Made by a program: the position numbers and the translations under genes. 64,000 nt of DNA from Cyanidioschyzon merolae (lineage: Eukaryota), in assembly GCA_000091205.1 (NCBI GenBank), contig AP006502.2; one strand, 5' to 3'. The notes under the pieces are model-generated. The model did not search any database. It saw only the letters and a list, made by a program, of their open reading frames with translations, and was not told the origin of the DNA. Shown here piece by piece: positions 1-30,900 of this stretch. The number at the start of each line of letters is the position of its first letter. The stretch's first letter is position 1.

Positions 1-879
1 CCCCCCATTTCCCCCCATATCACTCCGGCCGGTTGGTCAAAGCGGAAAAGCGTCTGTTAATTCTATGTCTATTGTTTCAGATTCAATAGTGAATTTCCAT
101 CCGCGCTACAGCCGGAATTTATGCCATCTGTACTTGCGACCTCTGGCCCAGCAGAAGTACTACCGAATCTATGTTGCGATACTTTCTCTTTACATATGTA
201 TGTGTAGGAGCATCGCTTGGATTAACAGTATCATTAGGGAATTCTCTCCAGTTCTACCTTTGTTCACAAAACTTTCTAGTTTCCGGCTATCCCAGGTTGC
301 CTGATCGATATTTGCTCTCGGTGCGGCGTCTATTTTTTCGAGCATTATTTTGAGCTGCCGTCGCTGTTCCCCACTCTCGTCTGCACTCTTCTGTTTTTAC
401 ATATTATCGTGCATCGGTAACGAGCCTTGAGCACTCGCCGTGGCATCTCCGTCGCTGGTGTGGATGCACTACGGAAACAGATCAGCTTTCGCTTACCACT
501 AAGCGTTTCGGAATGTGCTCGTTGCTCGCGACACGAAATTGAGACTTTTCATATATGCTGGGTGTCTCCAAGCTGGACAGGCAGTCTCTCTGCTGCGATG
601 GTGCGACGCGGTCTACTATTCGTCTACCGCAATCTATGTGACGCTTTGACTCTAAAAAGCAGATCCAATTTCCAGAATCTATCTTTTTTCGAATGAGATT
701 CTAAGGTGGGTTACATCACTCGCAAAATTGTGGTCACCTGGAGTAGAGGCTGGTAAAGTCTCGCTGCTCGCCGACCCTCCTCCTAAATGTAATTGTTTGA
801 CCATACGCGAATACTTCATTCTGTTAACGTCTACAGTCAGTGGCGTTTGTACTTGCTATTCCGTTTTTCGATATTGTCT

Positions 880-10854: not shown

Positions 10855-13800
10855 ATGGAAATTTCTGATCGAGTCTTGGGAGTTTTCCAGTAAAATTGGC
10901 CATCGCAGATTGATAGATAGACTGTAGAGTCGGAAATCGTGTTTACATTTCATCGAAGCGCAAATTGCTGGGGCAGGCATGTATCAGCAGAGGCCCTTTT
11001 TGCGAGTACGGGAGGTAGGTGCTTTCCTGATGCGAGGCCGAGATCTCGAGTCCAAAGTGATCCGCTGATGCTTGCTTTTCCAGAGGTAGAGACTCCCTTT
11101 GCCGGAACTGGTCGTGATTTGTACCCACAACCGGTACGGAAGGCACGTCAGTGAAGAGATTCGCTACGACTATACGCGGTATCATACGATTATGCTGCGG
11201 AGATCTCGGATACGAGAGCCGAAATACAACACGTGGCGCTGATAAAACAACCCGCTTGATTGCATGCGACTTGTTGGACATTCGGGAACAAGGCGGTTCA
11301 TTTTGAAACGCCCATGCCAGCATACCTTCTTTGTTTATGTTTGTTATTCTCGCTGGTATTCGCGAATCGACCGTGTCGCATAGATTGGAAATGAGCCGTG
11401 GAAAGAGTACATGCTGTTATCATCGGACAACGTCATACGAGATTACAGGTGAAACACAGTGATTCTAGGGTCATCAAACGGATGAACGAGTTTTTCGTTG
11501 TACTTATCTTGACCCTCCTACACCCAAAACTAAACACAGAAATATCGCCTACAAGACTGTGTCCGGGTTCATCCTTTTCTTTGCATGCGACCTCGAAGAG
11601 AGACTACAATCACCTACAGGGTGTGAATGGTCCACATCGTTGATTCGGACAGCGATCAAGGGACACAGACGGACAGAAGGAAGGCATTATTTATTGCAGA
11701 CCGCCACGCTCCGAACAGGGCAAAATCGAATTCATACTCAAACGCACGCGTATCTCTCGGGAGAAAGAGGTATGGATCTCGAATGGTGAAGTTCTAGTCA
11801 AGAGAAATACTATTCTTGAATATGGGTACTCGGAGGTTAAGCGTAAACCCCTGATCGTAAAAGAGACAGCGCGCAACCTGACAACATCGGTCTTACCAGT
11901 TTCCAAGTACATCGTGTGCTGGGAATCGCGGAACTTGCAGCATAACTCAATGACACATGTTCCTTCCGAGTACTTCACAATGCCTCCTTCACAAAACCAT
12001 AGAACCCGATCGTCGATGACGTCGGTCTCCATCACATAGAAGCGGACGGAAAATACGCAGCTGATATTGGCAGCTGTTGCTATTTGGTCCTTCCCATTCT
12101 ATCTGGACAAAATCAGCAACTGGGATCTTCTCTGCAGTCAGACGATAATCGTGTATACACAGATCACTTAGAGAGTTGTTCGACTTCGTGAAATTGAACT
12201 TCTTTGATAAAACCTTCCTCGACATATCGGTGACCTACTTTACCAGCTCATAGCCACCGTCATCTTCCTCGTACATATGAAGGAGGAGGAAGAAAGGCGA
12301 GCGCCAAACTGTAGGCGTGCTCGCGACGGCAAGACTGGGTTGATTTACTAGAAGAAGTAACTTTCGTCGCACGGTCCATCCCGCACAAACGACTCCTTTT
12401 GGAAACAAATGCATCCACAGTAAGCTGGCCACTGCCAAGCACTCCTTCGGTGTGGATGAAAAACGGTGTAACGGGAAGGATGAGAAGCAACGGGAAAGAA
12501 AGGAAGAGAATCCTCCAGGAAGACGACCAAGGAGGACTTGGGGCAAAAGCTGTCGGAGCGGAAACATCTTTCAGGAACCATCGTCAAGGCCTCCGTCCTA
12601 CAACTTACCATCAGGAATAATCTCCCACACAACGAAATGCTCAACATCGTTCCCGATCGCGTGGCTTCTGTCTCGACGCAAGGTAAACCCAGTTTCCCGC
12701 TCCACGATGCATGTCGCTGAGCAGGTGTTCGTACCAGTCTCGGACGCAGAGCTGCTAGCAGCCGGGATTCCTCGGGAGCTTTTCGATCTCGGCTTTGTGC
12801 CATAACACAATGGATGCTCGGGACGGAAGACGCAGTGCGGTCCGAGTACAGGATCAGGGAGATACGCGCACACACACACATTACCCAGACTTGGTTGACG
12901 CTTCACTGCACAATGTTGACGATCGGAACATCTGCACTGCAGGCGACCATAACACTATCAAACCGACCACTGCAATCAAGTCCATACGCCTGCCAAATGA
13001 CGAGCGCTCCATGCAGCGCACCCTGTAGGCGTTCCATTCTCACGCTGGCGGCCCCGGTGAGTTGGTACTGACACCAAAAAAGAATCTTCGCCTCTGCGCA
13101 TACACGAGCGTCCATATCGCCCAGGCGGACAATCCGTGGCACGAATCCATGCGACAGTGCTGGTGCTGCCAAAAGATTCCATTCGACGGAGGCAGGTCTC
13201 TTGCATTCACCAACTTGTCCAATGCACTGAAAAGATAAGTGACCGAAAAGCCGTTTTGTTTTCCGGTGGTAACCCGCGTCGCTGGACGTTCTGTGGCGAG
13301 CCATGGAGACGCCCATGTCCCTTCGACGAACGCACGCCGCAAGTGCATTGCTCCATGCCGAACGAATCCCATCGATGCATCCAGGGCGCCATCCAGGTAT
13401 CTTGAGCACGGGCGCGCATGCACGAAGCTACAGAAGAAGGGCTTGAAATACATCCAGATGAACGAGATGGCGTGCGTCTCGCTGACTTGACGGAGATACG
13501 AATGCCTCGATCGGCATCCGAAAAGGACCCCTGCGATTCGGGAGCGTCCATCGTTTCTTTTTTTCTGCCGGAGGATCTTTCCAGTTGATCTATTGACGAC
13601 GCAGTGCGCCGTTGTTCGGCAGAGCGGAATGCTTCTGATCCAAAGAAATCAATGCCAAAGATATAACGCATTTGATTCCGGTCTGGAGCAATGCACTGGT
13701 ATTGTATGAGCTGCAACCCAGTAGGTCTTGAGCGCCGTACGTTTGCACTGGAAGTGATGCTTCCAGGCAAAAAGTAGAAGATATTGCTGTCCTATGGTTC

Positions 13801-15037
13801 GCTATTATTGACTAGTAAGTAAGAGCAGTACGGCTTCATTTGATCCAAAAGTGAAATCGACCACCGATAGGATTGTGACAAGCGTCAATTGAGACGAAGA
13901 GCGCTCCTATAGCACGATAGACTCTATGACAGTTGCTACATAACAAACACGGATGCTCCTGCATTCAGCGTATATGTCGTGCAACTCCATGCTTCAATGT
14001 GTCCAGTCATGGTCGGCCGTTTGCGAGCGTGACAGTCCACGTCCACTCAGAGAAGCAGTTCTCCTCGAGAGTCAACGTAGGCACAGCGTTAGGGTCCACC
14101 TGATAGTAGCGTCTCACAACTGATACCAGCGTGATTAGGTGGCTTAACGGTACGATACGTTTATCCTAAAAAATAAAACACCCCAGCAATACGACAGCCA
14201 GTGCATTGCTTTCTTCGGGAAGACGACTCGTCTATTGTTAGGCAACGTTGCGGTACGACACGCATCTCACCGGACACGTAGGAGAAGGCGTATATCAGCA
14301 AGAGGGATCCTACTCGTCCCCCAGTATCCATTCGCATTCCAGAATGCTATCGGAAAGAAGGAACCGACGAGCGCCGCCGATCACACTGCTGGAGTATCAC
14401 AGGGGCATATCATACTAGGTGTCCCTATTACGGCAATAAGCTCCTGAGCAAACCTTCTGCAACCATAACACAAAGTCTGAAATGCTCTCCCTATTTTGGA
14501 TGACGTCCGGAGGCTCTATCCGTAACGTCCAGGATGGCACCTGTGCCTGAAACTCGCCCTGCTCCACCTACTGAGCGCACGTGGACCTGAAGGCGCACAG
14601 GAAAGAGCACCATACGCATCTGCCGCCTACACTGCCGAGTGAATCGTAAGACACCACGACCAAGAAAAGCGTTTATACACAGTACGCACCAACGCATGCC
14701 ATCCCCCTCTGATCCGTCTGGAGTTGCCGGACGCACGCTTCACAGTCGCAACTAGCCGGCTGTCCCATGAGCGAGGTTCAGCTACAGATCCACCCATAAC
14801 AGATTCGATGTCCCTGCTCGCCTCGTAACGTCCGCCACTGCTCCCAGAAGCGAAGCGCCTCATTCGCACAAACGCGTGCTTAGACGGCAACGTCCCTACC
14901 GTACGCAAGAACCGCGCCCGTACAACCCGCATCACTTGAACTGAAGCAGCGATACCTACAGTTCCCGATGCGTACAGCGCTCGTCACGCCCGGGGCGCTT
15001 GGCGATGTGGCTTTCAGGGCAGAGAGCGTGGGCGAGC

Positions 15038-17622
15038 TCGCCTGGGAAATCGCGCAGTCAACTGACACGATGCGCGTGCCGCCGATGAAGGGAAACGTTG
15101 TCGTGATCAGTTACGTGTTGTTCTGCTGTAAACATCGGATTTCTGTTGAGGCCATAGCAAAATACAGTCTTTCGGTTCGGTTTTGTTTCAAACTTCAACC
15201 AAGTCTAGTAAAGTGCTTTTTCGCAGCATATAACAGAAGCGTTCATTGAGGGTTCATTAAAAAACGAAAAACGGAAAGCTATGGAAAACCAGTCGACGAT
15301 CCTGGAGGGCTAGGGTCGCCGGCTGCCAGAAAAAAAACAAAAAGCAGTGCCGAGTCCAGAAGAAAAGGAAGGGAAGATGAACCGAAAGCGGGAGGCCCTA
15401 CGTCGGAGGCGGCAAGAAACATGACTGTAGAACGAGATGGAGGTGAAAACCTTTCTTCTTGGACACATCAAGGATCCCTACAGGGAAAAGTTGCGATACC
15501 CTATCAGAAAACGTGTCGACTCGTACTCCTTGAGGATTATGAAGGTTTCTTCATAACTATTCCATTTGGTGAAGGAGATGTGTCGCGACGTACCGCAGAT
15601 GGAAATGGTGGAGATTCCTGACAAGTTTTTCGATAAGACCTTTATTCGTCACTTGATGCTTGGCACAGAGAAAGGACGGATGGAAAATGAGCGGGTGCAT
15701 GCTCTCCACGAAAAACATCCCTTTTACAGCTTCAAGGGTACTCGGTACAAGGGTGACCGGGATGTTTACGACTATGGGGCGATGAAGTACCTCACGAACC
15801 TGAAGAACCGTTTGACAGAGAACCTCGAACGTTCCATGATACGCGCCGTGGTTGCACTCTACCCGGGCCAGTCTCGCCAAGGAAAATGGGCGATTATCAT
15901 AGGAATCACCAAAGATCGCAAGCATGAAGATGAGATCGAACTCGTCGACAAGAAGACATCACGTAAGAGAAAGAATGAAGCTTCTGTCATCCGTGCGGCC
16001 ATACACGAGTACCGTACAGTCTTGGGGTTGGCAAATCCGACAGACAAGATATCAGAGTTGAAAAAATATAAGGAATGATACTATCGCCTCGTCCTGCGCT
16101 ATTTTGTGTTTCTGGACCGAGAACTCGAACGCAAGGCAGAGGCGAGGCTGAGTGAGGAAAAAAATGAAGAGTGGGAGAGACGGAAGGCTTTCCTAATGGG
16201 TAAGCGCTTCGACGTGGTTCCAATGTGCAAGATCAAGTCACATTTGTGACTATCGACTCCGGCGTCCTTTACGGCATCATGAAGGAGATCAGTTCCGAGC
16301 TCAATGTCAGCAGGGAGGAGTTCTCCGGTGAAAACCGGGAGACGTACTGGAAGAATATCCTCAATTTCAAACGTCTCAAAGTCAGCGCGAAAAAGAAATT
16401 CACTGGGATGCTCGAAACCGATGGAGCAACCATTTGTGTACACTATCGGCGGTTAAAGAAAGATCGTCCAGTCCCGCCCTCGGCTGAGTCCTCTGCGAAA
16501 CATGAAGAAAACAAAGAAGCGAATCCTGAGACGCAAAAATTGCAGGATGACGACCTTGTCGTTGGCGCGGTGAGGCATGAAGAATAGAAGGAGGCAGATC
16601 TTGCGACGCAGGAGGTGCAGGATAACGACCTTGTCGTTCCTGCGGACCCGGGGAATACAAATATCATAACCATCGTTGTGCCCAAGCATGCGGAAGATGG
16701 TACTGACGGCAACTTACGTCAGAAAGACACGCGTGTGTTGAGATTCTCGAGAGCGAGAAATTATCGAGAATCCGGTATAATGAATGCGAGGAAGAAAATC
16801 GAGACTTGGGATGCAGGAATGAAGGATCAAATGGAAGCTTTGAGCGAGTTGACTAGCCGACGAACGGACGTTGAAGCTTTTCGGAAATTCATGGAAGTTC
16901 GCATTGCGCATTGGGATGCGCGGTGGGAGGAGTATACAAAGCCCCGGTGGGCTCGTCTGCGTATGAATTTCTACTGTGGCAATCAGCGGGCGTTCGCGAA
17001 TTTTTTTTAATAAGTTGAGCGCCTTGAAGGAGAATGAAAGTCAGAGGCTCGTAGTAGCGTACGGAGCAGGACGTTGGGCGTCGAGAAAAGGGACTACACC
17101 AGCTCCAACGACAAGGGTGTACAAAGAGTTCGCAAGGCATTTCGTTACGATACCTGTATTTGAGTTCCGAACATCGTATACACACCATGAGCTGGGTTGT
17201 ATACTCCAGAGAGTCGAGATGGAAAAGTGCCTGCGGAGTCCTGAAGATATACAAAAGCACGTACCGCTGACGGAGGTGCAACTGGAAAGGAGGGCGAAAG
17301 TGCGAGGGCCTCTCGCATTAGTAAGTACAGCCAATGATGGCAAGAAACGTATGGAGTGTGTGAACCCAGATTTTAATGCCGCTATCAATACAGGAAAAAG
17401 TGCGGTGCTGGAGAAAAGATCTCCAGAGTGGACAAGAGGGAACTTTATTGGACAACCTCTCAAAGTTGCACTATATAAGAAGAAGTTGTAAGCAGTACTA
17501 GGTGACCGGTCCAAAAAGAAGGGGTGGCGTCTGCCCTTACTTGGAGATGTTTCGTCTAGGGCGCGGTTACAGCCACTACTCTACAGCTGGCGACAGCGTT
17601 TTTTCTTTTGAAAGGTGTTTCT
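15038..17622 (+). mobile_element. Fanzor/TnpB-like element, copy 2 (pseudogenised)
   Basis: Same left end, ORF and right-end tail as copy 1. It shares copy 1's two N-terminal nonsense codons and its 1-nt deletion, and has its own frameshift at the run ttttttttaataag (~17005). Confidence 0.75.
15437..17560 (+). pseudogene. Fanzor/TnpB-like nuclease pseudogene, copy 2
   Basis: Track fragments are 15566..16078, 16225..16587, 16615..17010 ([13 protein letters not shown]...RLLRFS) and 16976..17491 (LVVAYGAGRW ... FEFRTSYTHHELGC ... VNPDFNAAINT). Confidence 0.7.
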
Positions 17623-19566
17623 TTCCAGGGGTGCGTCCGCCAAGCGACACTATCCAACTGGAAGCCCGCAAGCACCAGCAACGTCCTCTGTAGAGCGCAA
17701 TCACGAAACCTGCACAGGATCACACGTGGGCGGTACCAGCTTCGCTGTCAATGCTCCTCGAGAAAATGCTCTGCAGCGGGATATAACGCGCTGCCTGGCC
17801 GAACTGTAGGCCGAAGCTCACCAGCCCGTTTCCGTGACTATAATATATCGTATCGAGGTTTCGCGTCGTAGCGCTTTGTATACCGACGGTTAAATAGAGT
17901 GTGGAGGCAAACGACGAACGCTTATCTCGCACGTACGCAGCACAAGTTAAACTAACTCAGACGATACCGCTTGCAGACGATTCGACGGCGCCTGGCTCAT
18001 CACTGTGCAATTCGTCGTGGCAGACCCCTCTGACGCTCGGAGTACTTTGGTCGGCAAAGATATTGGCTAAAGAGGTTTGTGTACTTGCTGCTGGGAACTC
18101 CTTCTGTTCCAGGCCTGGTACGAGCGCCAACTCCGGGAGATCGTTTACGAGCATCCAACTTTGCCGGACGTTGGTGATGCGGGCGGGCGGTGGTAGCAAG
18201 TCGAGGCGCTAGCGCCGCGCTTCTAAGGCGTCACGAGCGAGCAAGCAGTGAAGCTTCGAAGTATACGGTGCCACGTACGGCAAAGAGCGTTGTCCCCCAC
18301 GTAATCCTGACCGTTTATCTTACGCAAACGCGTCGGTAACCATTCCTTGCTTTCCCAACATTGAATCTATCAACTGTTTCACCTGTGCGCACTACTTGTT
18401 CACGAACTTAGAGTGAAATCCGCCTCGCACGAAGCCATTCGGATGAACCATGCTACCTGTGCTCCGCCAGCGATGAGGACGCGGGTCTGCGCTCATCCGT
18501 CGTGTTTTGTACTAGCTGAAGGACTTCAATAGTACCAGTGCATGAGAGCATTGACAGCAAGTCTGAGAATACGTCGCCACCGCAGTGCAAGCGCGTTACA
18601 AGCACACACGCACATGAAACCGCTACTATATCCATCTCTCTCGGAGCAAGCATCATCGGCCCAGTCACTATTTCGATCGATCTAATAGTTCACATCTTCT
18701 ACGGTTTCCATTCCACACAGGATTCACATTTCGATATTCTGTTTGCTGCTTATTTTAGCAACGCAACAGAACAAGTCGCTGTCGCAGAATAGCCCCAATC
18801 TGACCACTGCGCATCTGGTTCGGTCGCTGACGTTCCCTCACGAACGCAAAGCGGAACTATGGCAACAATGTGTATCGAATGCTACAAAGAAAGCGGATAT
18901 ACACGGAGAGCAGCTCGAAAGGTGCGAAACGAAGCATACAGACTGCGAGTTTTTCCAAGCTCCATCATGAATGTGGCATTTGGTAAAAGAACCTCCCCAA
19001 TACCGTGACATTGTAAACGGAGCGCACCGTTCCAGTACAGAGCAATTTTCATTCCCGTGTTCACCGAAATGGAACGATGCCTGGCGGATCCACTCCGCTG
19101 CAAACAGTATTTGCGGAAGGCCAAAGCTTCAGCGATAAGGTGCACTTTGAAACGCTCCTGAAGCAGATGTAGTTCTGTGTACGTGTAATTGATGCGCTGC
19201 GTGTATTAGCACCAATAGTGCTGCTCGAAAAGCCCTTGATAAGAAGGTAACGGGCAAAACTTTTCGTTCCAAGTCACTCGACAGCTGGCGTGTATTGCGA
19301 GGTGAGGTCACTCACCGGTTCAGAAGTAATAGTACGCGAGCGTGTGTTTCAGTGCTGCTGCCGCTTATTCCACCAGATGACTCGAGACCTGCTACATAAA
19401 AGTCATGAGTTCCGTGCATCAGCCACGTCCACACTGCGGCTGAATTGCCCAGAGTGCACTTAACACCATCGAGGAGCGCTTTTGCAGAGCGTCCTGCCTC
19501 CCATGCATGGATCCCTTGACTGGGGCGTTCTGAGCACCTTCAGTCGATAGGCTATTCTTGAAAAGA

Positions 19567-22500
19567 TCAAATGATGTTCTGCACGTGTTGAATTCGAGGA
19601 ACGACATAGAACCAACGACCGAATGCCGTCATATTCATCCCATTGTTCGTGCTAGATAGACCGCCGCTGCCACTGGTGCCTGAACCAGAAGTTCCGCTGC
19701 TGCTACCACTACCGGTGTCACTGGTGCCTGAACCAAAAGTTCCGCTGTTGCTACCACTGCTTGTGTCACTGGTGCCTGAACCAAAAGTTCCGCTGTTGCT
19801 ACCACTGCTTGTGTCACTGGTGCCTGAACCAGGAGTTTTGCTGCTGCTACCACTGCCGGTGTCACTGGTGCCTGAACCAGGAGTTCCGCTGTTGCTACCA
19901 CTGCTTGTGTCACTGGTGCCTGAACCAGGAGTTCCGCTGTTGCTACCACTGCTTGTGTCACTGGTGCCTGAGCCCAAATTCCCGGCTCTGCTGCTACTGC
20001 TGCTGACAGGGATAGCGGATGTCTGCTCGATGATCCTATCCGGGCCTGAAGATGAGGTAGTTGGAGCATCGATACCTGTTCCAGGGCGGGGTGTTGACCC
20101 TAGACTGCTAAAAGTTGGCGGACTTATCGTGGTACGCATCGCTGTTGCGAATGCCCCCAGTGTGGATGAATGCGAGTTACGTTCTCCGCCGGGTTCCACA
20201 TTGTCTAAAAAGGAGCCGCCAGAAGTGCTCGTTGTAATAACCGGACTAAAGGGCGGTGGTAGTGTTGCCGTGGTCGCCACAGGTAGAGTGCTTACAGAGA
20301 GCGATGAGGCCTGTGATGATGTGGGGGTCACCGACATCGCATTCATCGTAGCGATGTACGGAGTTGGTGTGGGATGAACAACAGCTGGAGTAACCGTTGC
20401 AGTTGCTCTTGGAGCGCTTTCGGCACTATGGGTGCTGTTCCGCTCAGGTTCAGCAAAAAAGGCCTCAGAGACGCCAGACGATGCCGTGCCATTCGAGGTT
20501 GACGTACCCGCCTGGGTGCATACGCAGAGGTCGCCAACGCAGACCTTGGCCAGGTTACCAGAACAGCTGCCGGTGGTCGTTACGCACCCGCAGATATCTC
20601 CCAATAGACATGTGTAGACGACTCCTCCGGGGCACGGGGGAACCGAAGTAGACGAGACCGTACTCGTCGATGTAGACGTCGACGTGGTCATCGCTACGGA
20701 CGACGGCGTGCCAGTCGACGAAAACGAAGATATAGAGGCCGAGGGAACATTCGGAGAAGGTGAAGAAGAACTCGTCGACGAAGGCGTAAAATAAGGGATT
20801 GTTGTCGCTGCAGCAGTAGCCGATCTGTCCAACGATTGCCGTAACGAAGCACTCGATGACGCACTCGATGACGCACTCGATGACGCACTCGATGACGCAC
20901 TCGATGACGCACTTACAGATGCCTTTCGAGTCGGATGACGAGAGCGACCGCTCGATGACGATACATGGTCAGACGTACTGCGTGAGGAAGAAGAGCTCAT
21001 GGAGTACGAGTACGAGGCACTGGCAGATGCACTCGCAGATGAACTAGCAGACGCACTCGCAGAGGCGCTTAGAGATGCACTCGCAGAGGCGCTTAGAGAT
21101 GCACTCACAGAGGCGCTTAGAGATGCACTCGCAGAGTCATACGCGCTCACAGAGTACGAACCAGAAGCGCTCGCAGATGCGCTGGCAGACGCAGACTCGC
21201 TCTTCGACTGAGAGTACGAGTACGAGTACGAGGCACTGGCAGATGCACTCGCAGAGGCGCTTAGAGATGCACTCGCAGAGTCATACGCGCTCACAGAGTA
21301 TGAACCAGAAGCGCTCGCAGATGCGCTGGCAGACGCAGACTCGCTCTTCGACTGAGAGAACGAGTACGAGTACGAGGCACTGGCAGACGCACTCGCAGAG
21401 GCGCTTAGAGATGCACTCGCAGAGTCATACGCGCTCACAGAGTACGACCCAGAAGCGCTCGCAGATGCGCTGGCAGACGCAGACTCGCTCTTCGACTGAG
21501 AGTACGAGTACGAGTACGAGGCACTGGCAGATGCACTCGCAGAGGCGCTTAGAGATGCACTCGCAGAGTCATACGCGCTCACAGAGTACGACCCAGAAGC
21601 GCTCGCAGATGCGCTGGCAGACGCAGACTCGCTCTTCGACTGAGAGTACGAGTACGAGTACGAGGCACTGGCAGACGCACTCGCAGAGGCGCTTAGAGAT
21701 GCACTCGCAGAGTCATACGCGCTCACAGAGTACGACCCAGAAGCGCTCGCAGATGCGCTGGCAGACGCAGACTCGCTCTTCGACTGAGAGTACGAGTACG
21801 AGTACGAGTACGAGGCACTGGCAGACGCACTCGCAGAGGCGCTTAGAGATGCACTCGCAGAGTCATACGCGCTCACAGAGTACGAACCAGAAGCGCTCGC
21901 AGATGCGCTGGCAGACGCAGACTCGCTCTTCGACTGAGAGTACGAGTACGAGTACGAGGCACTGGCAGACGCACTCGCAGATGAACTAGCAGACGCACTC
22001 GCAGAGGCGCTTAGAGATGCACTCGCAGAGTCATACGCGCTCACAGAGTACGACCCAGAAGCGCTCGCAGATGCGCTGGCAGACGCAGACTCGCTCTTCG
22101 ACTGAGAGTACGAGTACGAGTACGAGGCACTGGCAGACGCACTCGCAGATGAACTAGCAGACGCACTCGCAGAGGCGCTTAGAGATGCACTCCCTGAGGC
22201 GCTTAGAGATGCACTCGCGGAGGCGCTTAGAGACGCACTCGCGGAGGCGCTTAGAGATGCACTCGCAGAGGCGCTTAGAGATGCACTCGCAGAGGCACTG
22301 GCAGACGCACTCGCTGAGGCGCTTAGAGATGCACTCGCAGAGTCATACGCGCTCACAGAGTACGACCCAGAAGCGCTCGCAGATGCGCTGGCAGACGCAG
22401 ACTCGCTCTTCGACTGAGAGTACGAGTACGAGTACGAGGCACTGGCAGACGCACTCGCAGAGGCGCTTAGAGACGCACTCGCAGAGGCGCTTAGAGATGC

Positions 22501-25500
22501 ACTCGCAGAGTCATACGCGCTCACAGAGTACGACCCAGAAGCGCTCGCAGATGCGCTGGCAGACGCACACTCGCTCTTCGACTGAGAGTACGAGTACGAG
22601 TACGAGGCACTGGCAGACGCACTCGCAGATGAACTAGCAGACGCACTCGCAGAGGCGCTTACAGATGCACTCGCAGAGTCATACGCGCTCACAGAGTACG
22701 ACCCAGAAGCGCTCGCAGATGCACTGGCAGACGCGCTCGCAGAGGCGCTTAGAGATGCACTCGCCGAGGCGCTTGCAGATGCACTCGCAGAGGCGCTTAC
22801 AGATGCACTCGCACAGGCGCTTACAGATGCACTCGCAGAGTCATACGCGCTCACAGAGTATGAACCAGAAGCGCTCGCAGATGCGCTGGCAGACGCAGAC
22901 TCGCTCTTCGACTGAGAGTACGAGTACGAGTACGAGGCACTGGCAGATGCACTCGCAGATGAACTAGCACACGCACTCGCAGAGGCGCTTACAGATGCAC
23001 TCGCAGAGGCGCCTACAGATGCACTCGCAGAGGCGCTTACAGATGCACTCGCAGAGTCATACGCGCTCACAGAGTACGAACCACAAGCGCTCGCAGATGC
23101 GCTGGCAGACGCAGACTCGCTCTTCGACTGAGAGTACGAGTACGAGTACGAGGCACTGGCAGACGCACTCGCAGATGAACTAGCAGACGCACTCGCAGAG
23201 GCGCTTAGAGATGCACTCGCAGAGTCATACGCGCTCACAGAGTACGACCCAGAAGCGCTCGCAGATGCGCTGGCAGACGCAGACTCGCTCTTCGACTGAG
23301 AGTACGAGTACGAGTACGAGGCACTGGAAGACGCACTCGCAGAGTCATACGCGCTCACAGAGTACGACCCAGAAGCGCTCGCAGATGCGCTGGCAGACGC
23401 AGACTCGCTCTTCGACTGAGAGTACGAGTACGAGTACGAGTACGAGGCACTGGCAGACGCACTCGCAGAGGCGCTTACAGATGCACTCGCAGAGTCATAC
23501 GCGCTCACAGAGTACGAACCAGAAGCGCTCGCAGATGCGCTGGCAGACGCAGACTCGCTCTTCGACTGAGAGTACGAGTACGAGTACGAGGCACTGGCAG
23601 ACGCACTCGCAGATGAACTAGCAGACGCACTCGCGGAGGCGCTTAGAGATGCACTCGCAGAGTCATACGCGCTCACAGAGTATGAACCAGAAGCGCTCGC
23701 AGATGCGCTGGCAGACGCAGACTCGCTCTTCGACTGAGAGTACGAGTACGAGTACGAGGACGAGGCACTGGCAGACGCACTCGCAGAGGCGCTTAGAGAT
23801 GCACTCGCAGAGTCATACGCGCTCACAGAGTATGAACCAGAAGCGCTCGCAGATGCGCTGGCAGACGCAGACTCGCTCTTCGACTGAGAGTACGAGTACG
23901 AGTACGAGTACGAGGCACTGGCAGACGCACTCGCAGAGGCGCTTAGAGATGCACTCGCAGAGTCATACGCGCTCACAGAGTACGACCCAGAAGCGCTCGC
24001 AGATGCGCTGGCAGACGCAGACTCGCTCTTCGACTGAGAGTACGAGTACGAGTACGAGGCACTGGCAGACGCACTCGCAGAGGCGCTTACAGATGCACTC
24101 GCAGAGGCGCTTAGAGATGCACTCGCAGAGTCATACGCGCTCACAGAGTACGACCCAGAAGCGCTCGCAGATGCGCTGGCAGACGCAGACTCGCTCTTCG
24201 ACTGAGAGTACGAGTACGAGTACGAGTACGAGGCACTGGCAGACGCACTCGCAGATGAACTAGCAGACGCACTCGCAGAGGCGCTTAGAGATGCACTCGC
24301 AGAGTCATACGCGCTCACAGAGTACGACCCAGAAGCGCTCGCAGATGCACTGGCAGACGCGCTCGCAGAGGCGCTTAGAGATGCACTCGCAGAGTCATAC
24401 GCGCTCACAGAGTACGACCCAGAAGCGCTCGCAGATGCGCTGGCAGACGCAGACTCGCTCTTCGACTGAGAGTACGAGTACGAGTACGAGGCACTGGCAG
24501 ACGCACTCACAGATGAACTAGCAGACGCACTCGCAGAGGCGCTTAGAGATGCACTCGCAGAGTCATACGCGCTCACAGAGTACGACCCAGAAGCGCTCGC
24601 AGATGCGCTGGCAGACGCAGACTCGCTCTTCGACTGAGAGTACGAGTACGAGTACGAGGCACTGGCAGACGCACTCGCAGATGAACTAGCAGACGCACTC
24701 GCAGAGTCATACGCGCTCACAGAGTACGACCCAGAAGCGCTCGCAGATGCGCTGGCAGACGCAGACTTGCTCTTCGACTGAGAGTACGAGTACGAGTACG
24801 AGGCACTGGCAGACGCACTCGCAGATGAACTAGCAGACGCACTCGCAGAGGCGCTTAGAGATGCACTCGCAGAGTCATACGCGCTCACAGAGTATGAACC
24901 AGAAGCGCTCGCAGATGCGCTGGCAGACGCAGACTCGCTCTTCGACTGAGAGTACGAGTGCGAGTACGAGGCACTGGCAGATGCACTCGCAGATGAACTA
25001 GCAGACGCACTCGCAGAGGCGCTTAGAGATGCACTCGCAGAGGCGCTTAGAGATGCACTCGCAGAGGCGCTTAGAGATGCACTCGCAGAGTCATACGCGC
25101 TCACAGAGTACGAACCAGAAGCGCTCGCAGATGCGCTGGCAGACGCAGACTCGCTCTTCGACTGAGAGTACGAGTACGAGTACGAGGCACTGGCAGACGC
25201 ACTCGCAGATGAACTAGCAGACGCACTCGCAGAGGCGCTTAGAGATGCACTCGCAGAGTCATACGCGCTCACAGAGTACGACCCAGAAGCGCTCGCAGAT
25301 GCGCTGGCAGACGCAGACTCGCTCTTCGACTGAGAGTACGAGTACGAGTACGAGGCACTGGCAGACGCACTCGCAGATGAACTAGCAGACGCAGACTCGC
25401 TCTTCGACTGAGAGTACGAGTACGAGTACGAGGCACTGGCAGATGCACTCGCAGAGGCGCTTAGAGATGCACTCGCAGAGTCATACGCGCTCACAGAGTA

Positions 25501-26931
25501 TGAACCAGAAGCGCTCGCAGATGCGCTGGCAGACGCAGACTCGCTCTTCGACTGAGAGTACGAGTACGAGTACGAGGCACTGGCAGATGCACTCGCAGAG
25601 GCGCTTAGAGATGCACTCGCAGAGTCATACGCGCTCACAGAGTATGAACCAGAAGCGCTCGCAGATGCGCTGGCAGACGCAGACTCGCTCTTCGACTGAG
25701 AGTACGTGTACGAGTACGAGGCACTGGCAGACGCACTCGCAGAGGCGCTTAGAGATGCACTCGCGGAGTCATACGCGCTCACAGAGTACGACCCAGAAGC
25801 GCTCGCAGATGCGCTGGCAGACGCAGACTTGCTCTTCGACTGAGAGTACGAGTACGAGTACGAGGCACTGGCAGACGCACTCGCAGAGGCGCTTTGATAT
25901 GCACTCGCAGAGACAGACGAACTCACGTCGTTCGATTGAGTTATAGTGGGCGAAGCAGTCTTGGTCTTTGCCTGCAAGGATGAATATGATACGCTTGTAG
26001 TGGCCCTCTTTGAACCACGGCTGCTTATTGATCTTGATGGCCTTGTGCTTGTATACAGTATTTGCGACTCGGATGGTGTTTGCGAAATTGCTGTCTTAGA
26101 CCGCTGCTTTGTGTATGCGACCGTCTCTACTGATCTTCGTACTGGTTTTGATTGCTGTACTGTTATTGGTGCATTCGACTGTGCTATCACGCTGCTCTGT
26201 GCTGTTGCAGTCCCTTGGGGCGTTTCTCGCTCTGTTTTTTGTTCAGAATTTTTTGACAATGCTTGCTGGAACGGAAAAATCTCGAATGTACATATTTTCG
26301 AAATCGGGACGCACCAGAACCCGTTCGGAGTCCGGGATATTCCCGATGTAGGTTTGGGATTAAGTCTATATAAGGCCCATTCCATGATCGAATCCCAACC
26401 GCCTTCCTTTTGGACTACGACTTGCGACTCTGACGTGACGTTCTGAGCGTTTCCTCCATGAAATGCCGTGATTTCAAATGTCTCCGTACATACACGGCAC
26501 TTGTTGAGCAGCAGATATTCCTTGCAAACTTCGACCTGTGTATACACACACTCTCGCGTGCATGAAGGAGTCAAAATTGTTCCGAATGCGTCGACGGCAT
26601 TGGTCCCTTCTTGGAACGGTCGAACAAACCAATTTCCCGTGGCGACCTGAGGCCCGGGGTCGACGCCCTGCACGATCGAAGGGGTCTCTTTCGCACAAAT
26701 GAGCTTTTCCTTATCGCAGATTTCGAGGACTTCAAACCGTACGCATTTCTTTTCAGTCTGGCAAGGGCCAATCTTCGTCACAGGTTCACAGAGACCGTTC
26801 CCCGACACATATCCTCCGCCTGTGCTGTATGCTTGCTGGTATAGCTTTGTTGGTCCAGCGGAAGCGGCTCTTATTCCCACAATAAGAAACAAAAACCCCA
26901 CGAGAATACGAAACCAAAATCTACTAAACAT
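19567..26931 (-). CDS. Giant secreted Ser/Ala-rich tandem-repeat protein (2454 aa): signal peptide, Cys-rich N-terminal domain, ~34 x 49-aa SASA/SYSY repeats, S/T-rich region, Cys-rich module, C-terminal [16 protein letters not shown] repeats
   Basis: One uninterrupted ORF with ATG at 26931 and N-terminus [25 protein letters not shown], a predicted signal peptide. The reading frame is preserved through 5 kb of imperfect repeats despite numerous indels, all multiples of 3. Opposite-strand frames are full of stops. Confidence 0.7.
19671..19985. repeat. About 6.5 tandem copies of a 48-bp unit (encodes [16 protein letters not shown] on the minus strand)
   Basis: The unit cactggtgcctgaaccaaaagttccgctgttgctaccactgcttgtgt is reiterated. 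Confidence 0.8.
20849..20908. repeat. 12-bp unit gcactcgatgac x5 (SSAS x5 in the protein)
   Basis: Direct reading of the sequence. Confidence 0.8.
20995..25905. repeat. Coding minisatellite: about 34 tandem copies of a ~147-bp unit (variants 135-190 bp)
   Basis: The reiterated unit is ...gactgagagtacgagtacgagtacgaggcactggcagacgcactcgcagaggcgcttagagatgcactcgcagagtcatacgcgctcacagagtacgacccagaagcgctcgcagatgcgctggcagacgcagactcgctcttc. It contains an embedded (tacgag)3-4 microsatellite. Confidence 0.9.
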
Positions 26932-27949
26932 ATCGATCTCAGTCGAAGTACCTTCAGAGACTAGATCCTCTGCACCCTCATTTCACTTTCAAAAGCCTAG
27001 ACTCCCAAGCTAAAGCTCTCGCGGGAGATCAGGTCTCAAATAAACCTGAGAATGAAAAACCTGGATCAACTATTTCCTTCGACCGCCAAAGCCACCGCGA
27101 TGCACACCACCCCCATGTTCACCACAATACATCGACCGTCGAGAATCACATCACAGCTCCGTCGTTCGATGAAGAGAAAATCGCCTCCGAGGTCACCATA
27201 TCGCCGTACGAAGATACCTGAGCCACAACCCGAGTCGCGTCCCCGTGACGTGACGAAGCCGACCTGTTTCTTCCACACGGTCCGGCATCCCCGCGGCGAT
27301 CTCAAAATGCGATTCGATTGATGCCACATATCAAGAAATCGACGGCTCGCAGTCTCAAAGAACCGGTGTCGGCGGCGGCGTCCCCTAGTGGACACGTATC
27401 GACCGCACGGGGACTGCGTGACAACGGGGATGTCGCGGCGACGCAACGGTCCAGCGCCGGAAACACTGGGGCCCATCGATTTAGCGACGGCTGCTGATCC
27501 GCGGGTGCACAGCGGCTGCATCAGTGTTCCTTGCTATGGAAAAAGAACACTACGAAACAAACCAGTCACAAACTATATATGAAAGAACAGCTATCTTACA
27601 AGCCCCATGCACTACGCCTGCCTAAGAGGTCTAGTTTTCCGGAGAAGCTCTGAAAGTGGGTTAACGCGGGGTGCTTGGGCGACGGCGAAGGAAGCCCACG
27701 ACACGGACCTTGACCGCAACGAACGGAGGCCCGGAGGCAGTAGCAGAGAATGATGACGAGAGTTCTGCGTACTTATCCGCTGCTCTAGAATCAACGCTGC
27801 AGGTTCGGGCACAACTCCTGGATACATCCTCGAACTTGGGCTCAGTTTTACCTCCTACATTGGTTTCTACCTCAACTTTGGAAACAGTCTCGGTGGATAT
27901 TTTGGAGGACGGCTGGCGGCATACTCGCGATCGAAGCTAGAATAGGCGA

Positions 27950-30900
27950 CTTGCTCGCCTACGTGTTTGGGGAGCGGATACTAAGCCGCTGAAAGGTTGG
28001 TTCATAGAGTATCCACTGTGGTTGCGGGTAGCTTCACGCGTCCGGCAAGATAAAGGTCGCATTTGTATCGACCTTGACTATGTACTTTTGAATGTACGCT
28101 AGCGCTGTGCCAGGCACTCAATGAACGACTGGAATGTAGGAGGTGCTGGTGGCATGTGCGCTCATATACCCCGTGGAGGGTGCGTTTAAATCGACGACGT
28201 ACCTCTAGAGTGCCGCAGCGCTATTCCTATTCCCTTACGCGCTACGACTCGTTAGTTTTCGCATCATGGAATATTTTTGGGATAGCCTCGATACTAGACG
28301 ACGAGATATCGAATCACCAGTACAGTAAAGAGGATCTGATACAAGTCGGGGACTCTGCAATAGGAAAAGAGACCCAAGGCGATACGGAAGAAGAGACACA
28401 GAAACCTCATGATCCACGTACCAGAAGAATAACCAGAGAAAGCAGCTCGGCAAAAAGCCCGAAGAAGAAGAAGACCAACAAGAAAAGACAGAAGAATAGA
28501 AAAAAGAACTCCCAAACGAGCCCATCACAAGTCATTTCCCGAAAGGGCACCCCAGCAGGAACTCAAGAAAGCCGTCGCCAAACCCAGTCACCTACTCACA
28601 GCGCTGAAGATCCGAAAAGCCGTGCATGCAAGCCTTTAGACCAATTGGCACGCGAGTTTGTAGATGCGAATCAGAAGACTGCCAGAGAGTTGGGACTGCT
28701 TGGGCCAGAACACAACAGTTGCAAACCTCAGTACCTGAAACGACGTACCAAAACTCGGATTGATGAATGCTACCGACTCAACAAGATCGTCAACCGCACC
28801 GCCATACGCGCCAACGCCGGAGACAAGGAAGCGACGGCAGTCCTAACGGCGCTACAGGCACAACATGAGGAAGCTATCAAAAGAAAGAAGAAACTTTCCA
28901 GAGAAGACAAACGAGAGGATCGAAACCGCAAAATCGCCTCCCTAGCGAAATCTATGCTAGAGAGCACCAACGAAGATGAGACCTGGCGCTACATTCGATC
29001 GAGACTGGACCCACCAAAAAAGTGCCTGGGACTCACACCAATCGTTTATGAGGAAGCGCTGAGGACGGAGAGTGCCTCAGTGAATGAGGCCTGGACGGAC
29101 CACGGCACAGAGCTGCATGAAGACGCAACTGGGCACTGCCGAAACCGAATCTATTGGCACCAATATGCTGCCAAACTACAGCGCCTCGACCCGGTACCGG
29201 AATGGAACGACCCAATCTTCTGGCCTGAATCTGTTCGGACCCTGCTATGCTCAAGCAACCGCAAAACACCTGGCTTTAACGGTATCCCTGCGGAGTGGAT
29301 GAAACTGGTGACCCCAAAAGACGAGACAACAGGGACACCATCGATACCAGATGAACCTGACACAATCTTAGGCAAACGCCTTCTGGAGCTCATCCAACGC
29401 ATGTTCGAAGAGGCGTACATCCCGGATGTACGGAGGACTGCCGAGGTCGTACCGATCCTCAAAAAGGACTCCCCCACAGACATGAACGACTACCAGACTA
29501 TGCGCCTCATCCCGTCAATCATGAAGCTACTTTGCGCCATTCCCACGAACCGGATCCAGAGAGGCCTCCAGGAGCGCAAGTTCTTCGCCCCAGAACAGGC
29601 TGGATTCCGGAGCCGCGAGGAATGCATGAGCCATGCCCTGACCCACATTGAAGTGGCGCAACGTCGCTCCATTGGCGGCCAACAACCAACTTACGTATGC
29701 TTCATCGACTTTCAAAAGGCCTTTGAAACGGCCCCGCACGAGGCTCCGTTTCTCAAGATGGAACGCGCCGGAGTCTCCGAAAAGTGCTTGGCGTTCTTCA
29801 GTGCGCTCTATGCAGACTCGTGGATGCGCATCCGACTGGGCGACGGGTCAAAAACCCCTTCCATAAGAATCCGACGTGGACTGCGACAGGGCGAACCCGC
29901 ATCCACGCTCCTTTTCAGCATCTTCATCAACGATCTGCTGAACAACCGCAGACAATTCGTGGTTGAGGTGCCGTGGATAGACTGCGGAGAGCCCGGTAAA
30001 GAGCCCTCGCATAGGAACCGCCTCGCAGGCCTTCTATTCGCGGACGATGTGGTGCTGTTGGCACCCGCCCCGGAAACGCTTGCGGCTAGCATGGAACAAG
30101 TTAGCGCCTGGGCCGATCGCTGGGAGATGAGCATAGGAGCATCGAAGTGCGGCGTCATGGTCATCCATGGAGACTCGCAGAGCATTCGCAATCGCTCGTG
30201 GCGGTTGCAGAATCAGGAAATTCCGATCGTGGAAAAATATCGCTACCTGGGGGTCTGTCTCACGCCGACGCTCGACGAAAAGGCACACGTTGACGAGATG
30301 ATCGCCAAGATGCATAGAGGTACAGCGATCGCACGCCCATTCCTATCCGATCCCTCTATCCCCTTAGCAATCCGTACGAGGGCGCTAAGGATGTGTATCA
30401 TCCAGCCTGCGACCTGGGGTGCTGGGTGGTGCGGCATGAAGCACACAAATGCCTCACGTCTGCAGACAGCCGCTAACAGGGCAATGCGACTCGTTGTTGT
30501 TGTTGGATGCTCAATGCAGAGCAGAGCAACCAACCCGCTGGCACTCGGACTTGAACTCCAAATACCCTCGACAGAAGCGATAGCAGCAGGCTGCCGGGCA
30601 TGTATGCGGGCCAAAGGGCCCACTATGCGCACCTCTTTGAGTCGGATTTTCATGCAGACCCCAACGCACCGCTAGAACACTTGGATGAAATCAGCGCAGA
30701 TTTGGCTGAAGCGCCTCTTACGCGAAAACACGCTACCCAATCGTTCCCCAGAAATATAGAATTCTCCCGTCGCCTGAAGCGTACGGTCCAAACGCCAATA
30801 TGGGAAGGTAGACACGGTACCAGTCGCGCTAGTAACGCCGGCTTGACCCTGTACCGGAACTACAACCCAACATACACGTGCAAGTACTGGTGGGAGGCGC

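Follow-up and report, generated by a model that had tools for sequence, protein, structure and literature searches.

The window, a stretch of 64,000 nucleotides from Cyanidioschyzon merolae (contig AP006502.2), begins with a complement of the telomere repeat at position 1 (Table 1). The gene described here is therefore subtelomeric and sits on C. merolae 10D chromosome 20, at 19.6-26.9 kb counted from its left telomere. Its neighbors are eukaryotic housekeeping genes, and a neighboring NatA subunit is 100% identical to XP_005539087.1, which, along with the telomere repeat, establishes the organism. The locus itself is one intact 2454-codon gene of C. merolae 10D. The minus-strand reading frame proposed for it in a preliminary description stands: it begins with ATG, encodes 2454 aa and is the sole open frame of six. 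As was also claimed, it stays open throughout the 4.9-kb central array, where 14-75 stops interrupt each of the five other frames. The opposite frames had been called saturated with TGA, which is only partly right: one plus-strand frame contains 14 TAG and no TGA. For both non-repeat flanks of the array, 345 and 431 codons long, 20,000 shuffles yielded 0 open cases.

Table 1. Positions in the window of the gene, its parts and associated features.
Feature	Position	Strand	Basis or remarks
Telomere-repeat complement CCCCCCATT	1..20	+	telomere unit AATGGGGGG from PMC1955436
Block common to the paralogue locus	18865..20685		97.5-99.6%; inner edge at codon 2083, inside the gene
Full-length ORF, proposed true extent of CMT009C	19567..26931	-	2454 codons + stop; only open frame
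GenBank-annotated part, CYME_CMT009C	19567..20691	-	374 aa, start at internal Met2081; P0142 100% identical (374/374 residues)
Ser/Thr/Gly/Pro-rich tail, residues 2141-2454	19570..20511	-	three N-X-S/T sequons; non-hydrophobic end
Second in-frame minisatellite	19671..19971	-	48 bp x 6.3; 16-aa G/S/T/D repeat x 6
8-Cys knot, residues 2097-2140	20512..20643	-	internal duplication of C-x7-C-x4/5-C-x-C; Cys within 2100-2138
Post-array Ser/Thr/Pro linker, residues 1991-2096	20644..20961	-	RK site at 2002
(SSSA)5 in post-array linker	20849-20913		12 bp x 5.4
(Ser-X)n array, residues 346-1990	20962..25896	-	29 anchored units, 48 aa base; S 49%, A 28%, Y 9%
Ser/Thr-rich basic linker, residues 236-345	25897..26226	-	composition; KR dibasic site at 308
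Globular N-domain, residues 27-235	26227..26853	-	12 Cys; one N-X-T sequon (N164)
Signal peptide, residues 1-26	26854..26931	-	sole hydrophobic segment (KD-19 up to 1.97), then A-S-A

Missing from the GenBank annotation of CMT009C are the signal peptide, the N-domain with its 12 Cys and all 1645 residues of the array; the annotated 374-aa model contains 8 Cys and sequons, without a signal peptide. Strain 10D is a model organism with about 4,800 genes and a genome called 100% complete, and one of its largest ORFs is known in the reference models just as this signal-less 374-aa fragment. As a consequence, the gene is missing from secretome, orthology and differential-expression analyses built on those models. 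No mention of CMT009C was found in the paper texts and supplements searched.

The ends of the protein were found much as first described. The signal peptide, called by eye, and a Cys-rich N-domain (about 12 Cys claimed, 12 counted) are both present, as are a C-terminal Cys-rich knot, with 8 Cys, and the G/S/T/D repeats, a 16-aa sequence repeated six times. Pfam gave no match for the N-part, the C-part, the knot or the whole protein (knot E <= 1; flanks E <= 0.01), no PDB sequence matched the N-domain, and the AF2 model of that domain was unusable (pLDDT 33). The N-domain and knot are previously undescribed and unlike the Kelch, Trefoil and Hog proteins of the Cyanidiales (Cho 2023; Nozaki 2007). 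Those families occupy the same niche of duplicated subtelomeric blocks and are likewise secreted with Thr/Pro-rich linkers, whereas no Kelch, Trefoil or Hint domain was found here at the same thresholds. Neither a transmembrane segment nor a GPI-type tail was detected: no hydropathy window exceeds 1.6 outside the signal peptide, and the last 20 residues have a mean Kyte-Doolittle value of 0.30. The protein had been suggested to be a cell-surface component, which in the sense of an anchored protein is not supported. Since the signal peptide looks cleavable and neither kind of anchor is present, the product should, judging from its sequence, be released to the secretory pathway and extracellular space.

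Searching 5.8e9 proteins, and scanning 1.84e9 representatives in full with phmmer, returned only the protein itself and one paralogue type, in agreement with the earlier view that it is lineage-specific; the protein, whose repeat had been described as unrecognized, matched no Pfam family and no PDB sequence. The gene belongs to a very small share of genes (about 0.6%) not common to the sister genus. The paralogue P0143, from hot-spring metagenomes, combines a homologous N-domain with this knot and tail within a single 889-aa ORF. The two N-domains are about 30% identical with 12/12 Cys invariant, and the tails are about 96% identical. P0143 carries 4 copies of the knot, its middle region is a Pro/Thr/Ser repeat (TTSTSSPTTT), and its tail minisatellite has 3 copies vs. 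6 here. The block that begins at codon 2083 (linker end, knot, and tail) recurs, together with the 3' flank, in at least one paralogue, whose N-domain has diverged. Codons 2083-2373 (linker end, knot, and part of the tail) differ from the paralogue by 3 synonymous and 19 nonsynonymous changes (pN/pS ~2.3), so purifying selection is not visible there. Because a single ORF of P0143 has its parts arranged in this order, with all N-domain Cys kept, the long gene model is supported. The earlier view of a minus-strand coding gene, whose secreted product is Cys-rich at both ends, is supported too.

The array between these domains is a strict (Ser-X)n polymer. Over 1645 residues, about 820 dipeptides, Ser occupies 95.6% of the positions of one parity and 2.2% of the other; Thr amounts to 0.1% and Pro to about 0%. 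TRF reports periods of 144/168 with sub-periods of 12/24 bp across about 21.0-25.9 kb. The unit originally given as 49 aa (~147 bp) is actually 48 aa (144 bp). The ~34 copies attributed to it are roughly right as unit-equivalents by length, but 29 anchored units plus partial end units were counted. Length differences, said to be multiples of 3, do keep the frame but follow a stricter rule of multiples of 6 bp: unit lengths run from 30 to 104 aa in steps of 2 aa and are always even. Most units (21 of 28 measured) differ from 48 aa, with the changes confined to one of the predicted beta strands. Such in-frame indels are by themselves weak evidence of selection, since they partly follow from slippage of 6, 12, and 24-bp sub-repeats. 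Counted for protein-level constraint are the Ser parity, maintained across two codon families (TCN 512, AGY 292), and the substitution pattern of block A, in which unit differences fall 6, 3, and 26 at the three codon positions (27 synonymous vs. 8 nonsynonymous). The lack of any change in the N-part CDS of three environmental contigs with differing upstream DNA is counted likewise.

AF2 is prone to over-predict solenoids for repeats. In its single-sequence model, each canonical unit runs strand-turn-strand and contributes a rung to a beta-solenoid (pLDDT 79, pTM 0.77; 3/5 models agree, 2/5 failed), with all D, Q, K, and E of the units in two predicted turns. A Foldseek search with the array model gave no significant match. 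A single regular solenoid fits the array poorly, as most units are off 48 aa and vary in one strand only. Given composition, S-X alternation and model together, a disordered, glycosylated stalk is no more likely than a folded or fibrous beta structure. Each 48-aa unit would then form a rung with strands of (S-A/Y/V/L)n and turns of YDSA and QSKSE. Successive units might stack to give a silk-like ribbon or a beta-solenoid of two sheets, with Ala and Tyr inside and Ser hydroxyls over both surfaces. The Cys-rich end domains could engage in intermolecular disulfides, one exposed Lys per unit and clusters of Tyr are candidate lysyl-oxidase and oxidative cross-link sites, and the Ser/Thr/Pro linkers and tail are candidates for O-glycosylation.

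Several known systems share parts of this design. The (SX)n blocks of caddisfly (Trichoptera) H-fibroin are phosphorylated and Ca2+-bridged. This and other silk fibroins are likewise very large secreted proteins with a repetitive (S-X)n core and short non-repetitive Cys-bearing termini. The fibroin core forms beta domains, and for the algal array long strands are predicted by AF2 from a single sequence. Allelic repeat variation is known in such fibroins (PMC13267644, PMC4929942). Here the (S-X)n is near-continuous with X being Ala or Tyr, whereas fibroin has short (SX)4-5 blocks with Val/Ile/Arg and Gly-rich spacers; the host is a unicellular alga, and no homology to fibroin termini was found, homologues being confined to the lineage. 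Likeness to curli CsgA and FapC is at the level of fold class only (TM 0.12-0.14, with the structure here predicted). The strands here span 17-21 residues vs. about 7-9, there are no Gln/Asn ladders, and the protein is eukaryotic with Cys-rich end domains. The serine-rich repeat glycoproteins of Gram-positive bacteria (GspB, Fap1, PsrP, Srr1/2) carry hundreds of S-A/S-V/S-E dipeptides as a long stalk beside a non-repeat domain (PMC7948813, PMC5578698, PMC3861647), and a long (S-X)n is found here as well. The algal protein differs in its 26-residue eukaryotic-type signal, in an unrelated non-repeat domain, in lacking a KxYKxGKxW-type signal, LPXTG and accessory-Sec (SecA2/Y2-Gtf) context, and in its 48-aa higher-order unit with turn motifs, which is missing from the bacterial proteins. 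Relative to green-algal and plant HRGPs (extensins, pherophorins), Ser-(Hyp/Pro)n motifs are missing, array Pro being ~0.

The function that we infer, with about even confidence, is structural: the protein would be secreted and fibrous in the manner of silk or curli, would belong to the matrix or wall, and would have an array that shifts by slippage in the subtelomere. The protein would be a fibrous extracellular-matrix component, most plausibly of the largely proteinaceous diploid wall. Strain 10D is a wall-less haploid, and the diploid is walled, with about 50% of the wall being protein; a diploid bias is reported for LOX, RBOH, and TFF-like genes (PMC13353863). What LOX acts on has yet to be identified (PMC6508830). 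Under this reading the gene is probably silent or low in haploid 10D. The N-domain family was not found in the walled sister genera Cyanidiococcus and Cyanidium, and hence it is not a conserved wall scaffold. A premature stop in one natural haplotype, described below, makes the gene dispensable at least when heterozygous, and probably dispensable. A more specific version, a Ser-faced, Ala/Tyr-cored beta-solenoid "algal silk" cross-linked at Lys by secreted lysyl oxidase and at Tyr by RBOH oxidants in the proton-tight diploid Cyanidioschyzon wall, is improbable. If true, it would represent a new kind of eukaryotic structural polymer, and no fibrous wall protein or LOX substrate would have been named before it in Cyanidiophyceae. 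The recognition in 2026 that strain 10D is haploid and wall-less, its diploid counterpart being walled, raised the questions of what the wall consists of and what LOX acts on, and the protein is a concrete, knockout-testable candidate both for diploid wall material and for the diploid-specific lysyl oxidase target. Trypsin peptides of the array would be 48-56 residues or longer and so would be missed by standard proteomics. Even if this is not a wall protein, the strict (Ser-X)n design with charges in turns only is an unusual, chemically acid-robust repeat architecture.

A mucin-type coat is unlikely, although much of the domain order accords with it. The Ser-rich array would be an extended, heavily O-glycosylated (e.g., O-mannosylated) bottle-brush whose Cys-rich ends multimerize into an acid-protective glycocalyx or gel, in which the trefoil-factor-like proteins encoded in Cyanidiales subtelomeres might find their missing partner. 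The signal peptide, hydroxy-amino-acid repeats (49% Ser), Ser/Thr/Pro linkers, and Cys-rich N-domain and C-terminal knot are placed as in gel-forming mucins, and the host has expanded subtelomeric TFF-like genes. The middle of the paralogue is a classic Pro/Thr/Ser repeat, a protein O-mannosyltransferase gene lies at C. merolae subtelomeres (PMC1955436), and the authors reporting diploid-biased TFF-like genes draw an analogy to mucin co-secretion (PMC13353863). Against this, no Pfam match to VWD, C8, TIL, CTCK, or Trefoil was found, and S/T/P-rich sequence is limited to short linkers. The array itself does not look mucin-like: it is nearly devoid of Pro and Thr, its strict S-X alternation with hydrophobic X and turn-confined charges are hallmarks of beta structure, and the solenoid is predicted with confidence.

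It is improbable that the protein acts as a head-stalk adhesin or agglutinin, with the N-domain as a binding head on a rigid Ser-faced stalk mediating attachment to substrates or between cells, for example in mating of the wall-less haploids. Fungal FLO, ALS, and EPA wall-adhesin genes are reported (Verstrepen et al. 2005) to be subtelomeric and to encode a globular N-domain and a copy-variable in-frame Ser/Thr minisatellite, with sequence exchange among paralogues at different chromosome ends. The subtelomeric site, the N-terminal globular domain followed by a central in-frame repeat, and the head-stalk-tail order are shared here, and repeat variability is seen as in-frame strain differences and in the 6 vs. 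3 tail repeats. The heads of the two paralogues are far more divergent than their tails and might confer different specificities, and change in the tail is possibly diversifying. However, every anchor looked for (TM segment, GPI-type tail, LPXTG) is missing, no PA14, Flo5, or Als-type domain is present, no binding domain is recognizable by Pfam or PDB, and the array is poor in Thr and Pro. The mating-type region lies elsewhere, on chromosome 11, and the N-domain is invariant rather than diversifying among window-type strains, the 1035 nt of N-part CDS being unchanged (0 differences) across three environmental contigs. The upstream DNA of two of these (L005, L006) is 0.35-1.1% different, and the upstream alignment of the third (L007) is gap-ridden.

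There is likewise little probability that the short annotated gene is correct or the locus dead, with the array and upstream ORF an untranslated minisatellite, a decaying relic whose open frame is a recent by-product of slippage in 6/12/24-bp steps. The reference annotation does call just 374 aa, length changes in multiples of the sub-repeats keep the frame without need of selection, the shared knot-and-tail block has the elevated pN/pS given above, and H3K27me3 represses subtelomeres (PMC5405695). In addition, a stop at codon 35 and three nonsynonymous changes occur in a natural haplotype represented by three contigs; 4/5 of its changes are nonsynonymous. Yet the 345-codon non-repeat N-part, open beyond the shuffled expectation, begins with a signal peptide, the ORF is intact in four environmental contigs, and a signal-less 374-aa protein with 8 Cys and sequons makes little sense. 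Both the Ser parity across codon families and the Cys and part order shared with a 30%-identical paralogue also speak for a translated gene.

That the reference array is collapsed or inflated by misassembly is highly improbable. In favor of it, the 2004 assembly had 46 gaps and >20 kb of misassembly, fixed in 2007 (PMC1955436), and every short-read metagenome contig breaks ~0.2-0.6 kb past the array start, about 1.2-1.7 kb into the gene, several being chimeric there. Against it, the reference is BAC/Sanger-finished, unique variants (Cys substitutions; 30, 40, 54, 58, 74, and 104-aa units once each) define a unique tiling path, and the array is seen independently in six environmental contigs. 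Doubt is limited to copy number. For a fibrous matrix protein encoded in a recombination-prone subtelomere, array length would drift as 6/12/24/144-bp sub-repeats slip or are exchanged unequally. There is indirect support for the hypervariable repeat number anticipated in the preliminary description: the first units show in-frame differences among environmental copies, and the tail minisatellite varies in copy number.

The 2454-codon reading frame on the minus strand is a real gene, and its annotated model should be lengthened from 374 to 2454 codons. The C-terminal 431 residues of the predicted protein, searched against 5.8 billion proteins, have a single match, the "hypothetical protein CYME_CMT009C" (374 aa), which matches the last 374 codons at 100% identity and begins at an internal methionine, Met2081. 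The N-terminal 340 residues match one protein cluster only, from JGI metagenomes, and no NCBI protein was found to match them; the signal peptide, N-domain and array are therefore missing from the reference proteome. The name CMT009C was not found in the paper texts searched, or in the parts of the supplements to PMC13353863 and PMC5405695 that were accessible. Across the array all frames but that of the gene are closed, with 44 and 75 stops in the other minus-strand frames and 59, 29 and 14 in the plus-strand frames, in agreement with the long open repeat frame of the preliminary description. Neither non-repeat flank (345 codons at the N-terminus, 431 at the C-terminus) was open in any of 20,000 composition-preserving shuffles. 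Residues 1-26, which end in A-S-A, are the protein's sole hydrophobic segment, and secretion of the product is well supported. The signal peptide, Cys-rich N-domain (12 Cys) and second Cys-rich knot (8 Cys) proposed earlier are upheld. Dibasic sites occur in the linkers on both sides of the array (KR at residue 308, RK at residue 2002); as candidate kexin-type processing sites, they could free the array from the Cys-rich ends. An ORF just upstream of the gene was taken as a chance ORF, having neither a homologue at the paralogue locus nor a Pfam match.

Positions of the gene, its repeats and associated features in the window
Feature	Position	Strand	Details
The gene	19567-26931	-	2454 codons; ATG start
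Main array	~21.0-25.9 kb		main periods 144 and 168 bp, sub-periods 12 and 24 bp; Tandem Repeats Finder
Separate tail minisatellite	19671-19971		48 bp x 6.3; Tandem Repeats Finder
Codon 35 (TAC; TAA in one haplotype)	~26827-26829		position 114 of contig L001
Candidate processing site KR 308	~26005-26010		
Candidate processing site RK 2002	~20923-20928		
Homology between the two locus types	20685 to at least 18865		starts at codon 2083, continues through the 3' flank
Chance ORF	27066-27521		151 aa
Reverse-transcriptase ORF	28156-30675	+	839 aa; RVT_1, E 1e-21
Gene-poor interval	10855-19566		~8.7 kb, anion transporter to the gene
DNA copied near the paralogue locus	55187-57164		AMPK-beta N-terminal region and upstream DNA

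Parsing of the protein on an 11-residue motif gives 29 anchored array units, with a base length of 48 aa and a range of 30-104 aa, the commonest lengths being 56 aa (nine units) and 48 aa (seven units). Unit lengths are without exception even, so that length changes are multiples of 6 bp. The array is therefore an in-frame minisatellite as first described, with a base unit of 48 rather than 49 residues and length steps of 6 bp. Given sub-repeats of 6, 12 and 24 bp, slippage alone would yield in-frame indels, and the preserved frame is weak evidence for selection. Over 1645 residues, serine fills 95.6% of the positions of one parity and 2.2% of those of the other. These serines are encoded by both codon families (TCN 512, AGY 292) in a fixed pattern, making the protein more regular than the DNA. 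The array consists of 49% Ser, 28% Ala, 9% Tyr and 0.1% Thr, with no Pro and about one each of Lys, Asp, Glu and Gln per unit. Four lone, unpaired cysteines (residues 1283, 1321, 1373 and 1455) replace X or Ser of the Ser-X dipeptide in middle units of an otherwise Cys-free array. As unique markers, these isolated residues argue against assembly collapse.

A phmmer search with the N-domain over 1.84 billion representatives identified one true relative, P0143, an 889-aa protein from hot-spring metagenomes (E 2.4e-14); a fish protein, P0144 (E 3.5e-6), matched through its repeated Cys pattern and was dismissed as spurious. P0143 carries a signal peptide, then an N-domain ~30% identical to that of the gene in which 12 of 12 Cys are invariant; the same ORF continues with a Thr/Pro/Ser linker, the 8-Cys knot in four copies and a ~96% identical tail. 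The head-spacer-knot-tail order is thus conserved between the two proteins, with a spacer that is free to change, and the presence of this order within one ORF in P0143 counts for the long ORF as the gene. Both end regions had been put forward as search queries in the preliminary description, and between them they retrieved P0143 and CYME_CMT009C. A scan of JGI metagenome contigs with an alignment of the N-domain recovered three loci of the window type, at 100% N-domain identity, and three of the P0143 type. That P0143 is an allele was provisionally rejected: sample Ga0078972 contains both locus types, and allelism would need the loss of 34 kb with the Pex2 and NatA genes. The inner edge of the homology between locus types lies within two codons of Met2081, the annotated start of CMT009C, so the annotated fragment corresponds in essence to the portion of the gene that was duplicated. 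The P0143 locus shows no relation to the window upstream of its gene, and ~3.4 kb further out it meets a copy of window DNA (94.7-98.1% in L004 1-359 and L009 1-1978, both metagenome contigs) that breaks within the AMPK-beta ORF. Segmental duplication appears to have made this truncated AMPK-beta copy (a 185-aa ORF in L004). From this layout, we read the two loci as paralogues with a duplicated subtelomeric block in common, the inner edge of which lies inside coding sequence.

Variation among strains bears on both the reality of the gene and its constraint. Three environmental contigs (L005, L006 and L007) have no differences from the window over the first 1035 coding bases, while their upstream DNA differs by 0.35% (L005) and 1.1% (L006), or is ~95% identical in a gap-ridden alignment (L007); invariant coding bases beside diverging upstream DNA count for the long ORF as a gene. 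Differences among strains (0-5 in 1035 nt) are too few for dN/dS. Among array units, differences in the best-conserved block fall at codon positions one, two and three in the numbers 6, 3 and 26 (27 synonymous vs. 8 nonsynonymous), while a second block (5, 2 and 4) lacks third-position bias; these counts rest on few independent events, and the third-position excess counts for a coding array. One environmental haplotype, found in L001, L003 and the P0122 contig, carries TAC to TAA at codon 35, together with three nonsynonymous changes and one synonymous change. Natural populations are diploid (PMC13353863), and this haplotype looks like a null allele circulating in them; cells can probably dispense with the gene, at least in the heterozygous state. 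Between the window and P0143, codons 2083-2373 (linker end, knot and most of the tail) show 19 nonsynonymous and 3 synonymous differences (pN/pS ~2.3), and the 702 bp downstream are 99.6% identical. Strong purifying selection is clearly absent from this block; the counts are too small for proof of positive selection.

The repeats also show indirect signs of instability. The first array units differ in frame among strains (an extra Tyr-Ser, an SASL variant and a 56-aa first unit), and the tail minisatellite has six units in the gene vs. three in P0143. All short-read contigs end or turn chimeric ~0.2-0.6 kb past the array start. L001 (at ~1199), L002 (~1717) and L003 (~1238) exit the array after 1-3 units into unrelated DNA, which in L002 includes an L51_S25_CI-B8 gene; these exits most likely reflect chimeric joining of short reads at the repeat rather than real junctions.

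Four canonical units, submitted to AlphaFold2 as a single low-complexity sequence, gave a mean pLDDT of 79 and a pTM of 0.77, with three of five models in agreement. Each 48-aa unit is predicted to form two strands of 17-21 residues, with YDSA and QSKSE as the turns that join them. D, Q, K and E are confined to the predicted turns, and apart from one F the strands are made up of S, A, Y, V, L and G alone. Serine would line one strand face and Ala/Tyr the other, such that a two-sheet solenoid or silk-like stack would hide Ala and Tyr, expose the Ser hydroxyls and place Lys, Glu and Asp on the edges. Many units carry 2-56 added residues in one strand, a poor fit to a perfectly regular solenoid, and for this reason the assignment is limited to "beta-rich fibrous", an architecture that the prediction moderately supports. 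Foldseek searches of the PDB returned no significant match for the predicted fold, and an N-domain model from a two-sequence alignment (pLDDT 33) was discarded. Hydrophobicity of the full protein revealed no transmembrane segment or GPI-like tail; the product should therefore be secreted, with any retention due to cross-links or binding. Candidate retention sites may include the Cys-rich domains at both ends (12 and 8 Cys), the one Lys in each unit and the clusters of Tyr. A role in the wall or matrix is inferred, as are cross-linking and glycosylation.

No sequence homology to any compared family was detected in Pfam, PDB or protein searches. No relevant Pfam match was obtained for the N-part, C-part, knot, array or whole protein, for P0143 or for ten small ORFs nearby, and PDB sequence searches gave no match. 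Resemblances are of general design. Caddisfly H-fibroin has Cys-bearing termini and (S-X)n blocks with beta structure of the sort predicted for the array, and the curli and Fap amyloids have strand-turn-strand rungs such as those predicted for its units. Bacterial serine-rich repeat glycoproteins have dipeptide Ser repeats, but the gene lacks LPXTG; fungal FLO/ALS genes are likewise subtelomeric, variable and of head-repeat-tail organization, but the gene lacks a GPI signal and a PA14 or Als domain. Gel-forming mucins have Cys-rich ends, but the gene lacks VWD, CTCK and a Pro/Thr-rich repeat. Ser-Pro motifs and Kelch, Trefoil and Hint domains are also absent. The earlier impression of a lineage-specific protein, with a repeat unrecognised among characterised mucins and silk/adhesive proteins, holds in Pfam, PDB and phmmer searches. 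The gene represents a new family confined to this lineage and belonging to a familiar general class, that of secreted structural or surface proteins with tandem repeats.

Strain 10D is a wall-less haploid, the diploid being walled and the sole form observed in nature; the cyanidiophycean wall is about half protein and lacks cellulose (PMC13353863). Diploid-biased genes include those for a secreted lysyl oxidase, fasciclin proteins, RBOH and most trefoil-like proteins (PMC13353863), and the wall substrate of lysyl oxidase is still to be named (PMC6508830). A fibrous secreted protein bearing Lys and Tyr fits this gap. In haploid 10D, subtelomeres carry repressive H3K27me3 (PMC5405695). A phmmer scan found the N-domain family absent from walled sister genera, and this, together with the natural null haplotype, speaks against a conserved scaffold at the core of the wall; the likelier role is that of an accessory matrix or coat protein specific to the species. 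A connection with mating type was rejected, since the gene is on chromosome 20 and the mating-type region on chromosome 11. The gene marks a hole in the annotation of a model genome and provides a testable candidate for an open question, with signs of dispensability.

The window opens with CCCCCCATT repeats, the complement of the C. merolae telomere unit AATGGGGGG (PMC1955436), which places it at the left end of chromosome 20 and makes the gene subtelomeric. Neighbours in the window are of eukaryotic type and include a copper amine oxidase, a Band-3-type anion transporter, a reverse transcriptase ORF, Pex2, a NatA auxiliary subunit (XP_005539087.1 of Cyanidioschyzon merolae 10D, 100% over 846 residues) and AMPK-beta. 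Nozaki et al. list amine oxidase and anion transporter among chromosome-end genes and describe nine unique chromosome ends, of which 20L is not one (PMC1955436). The reverse-transcriptase ORF lies 1.2 kb upstream of the gene in divergent orientation and, judged by position, is probably CMT010C, which a supplement places in a 22-member orthogroup of Cz. merolae only (PMC13353863). Homology of L006 and L007 to the window changes or stops inside or just past this ORF. On the other side of the gene, the interval up to the anion transporter, which may be a degenerate repeat or belong to the shared subtelomeric element, is gene-poor to an unusual degree for a compact genome: its largest ORF is at most ~190 aa, and six ORFs of at least 150 aa have no Pfam matches.
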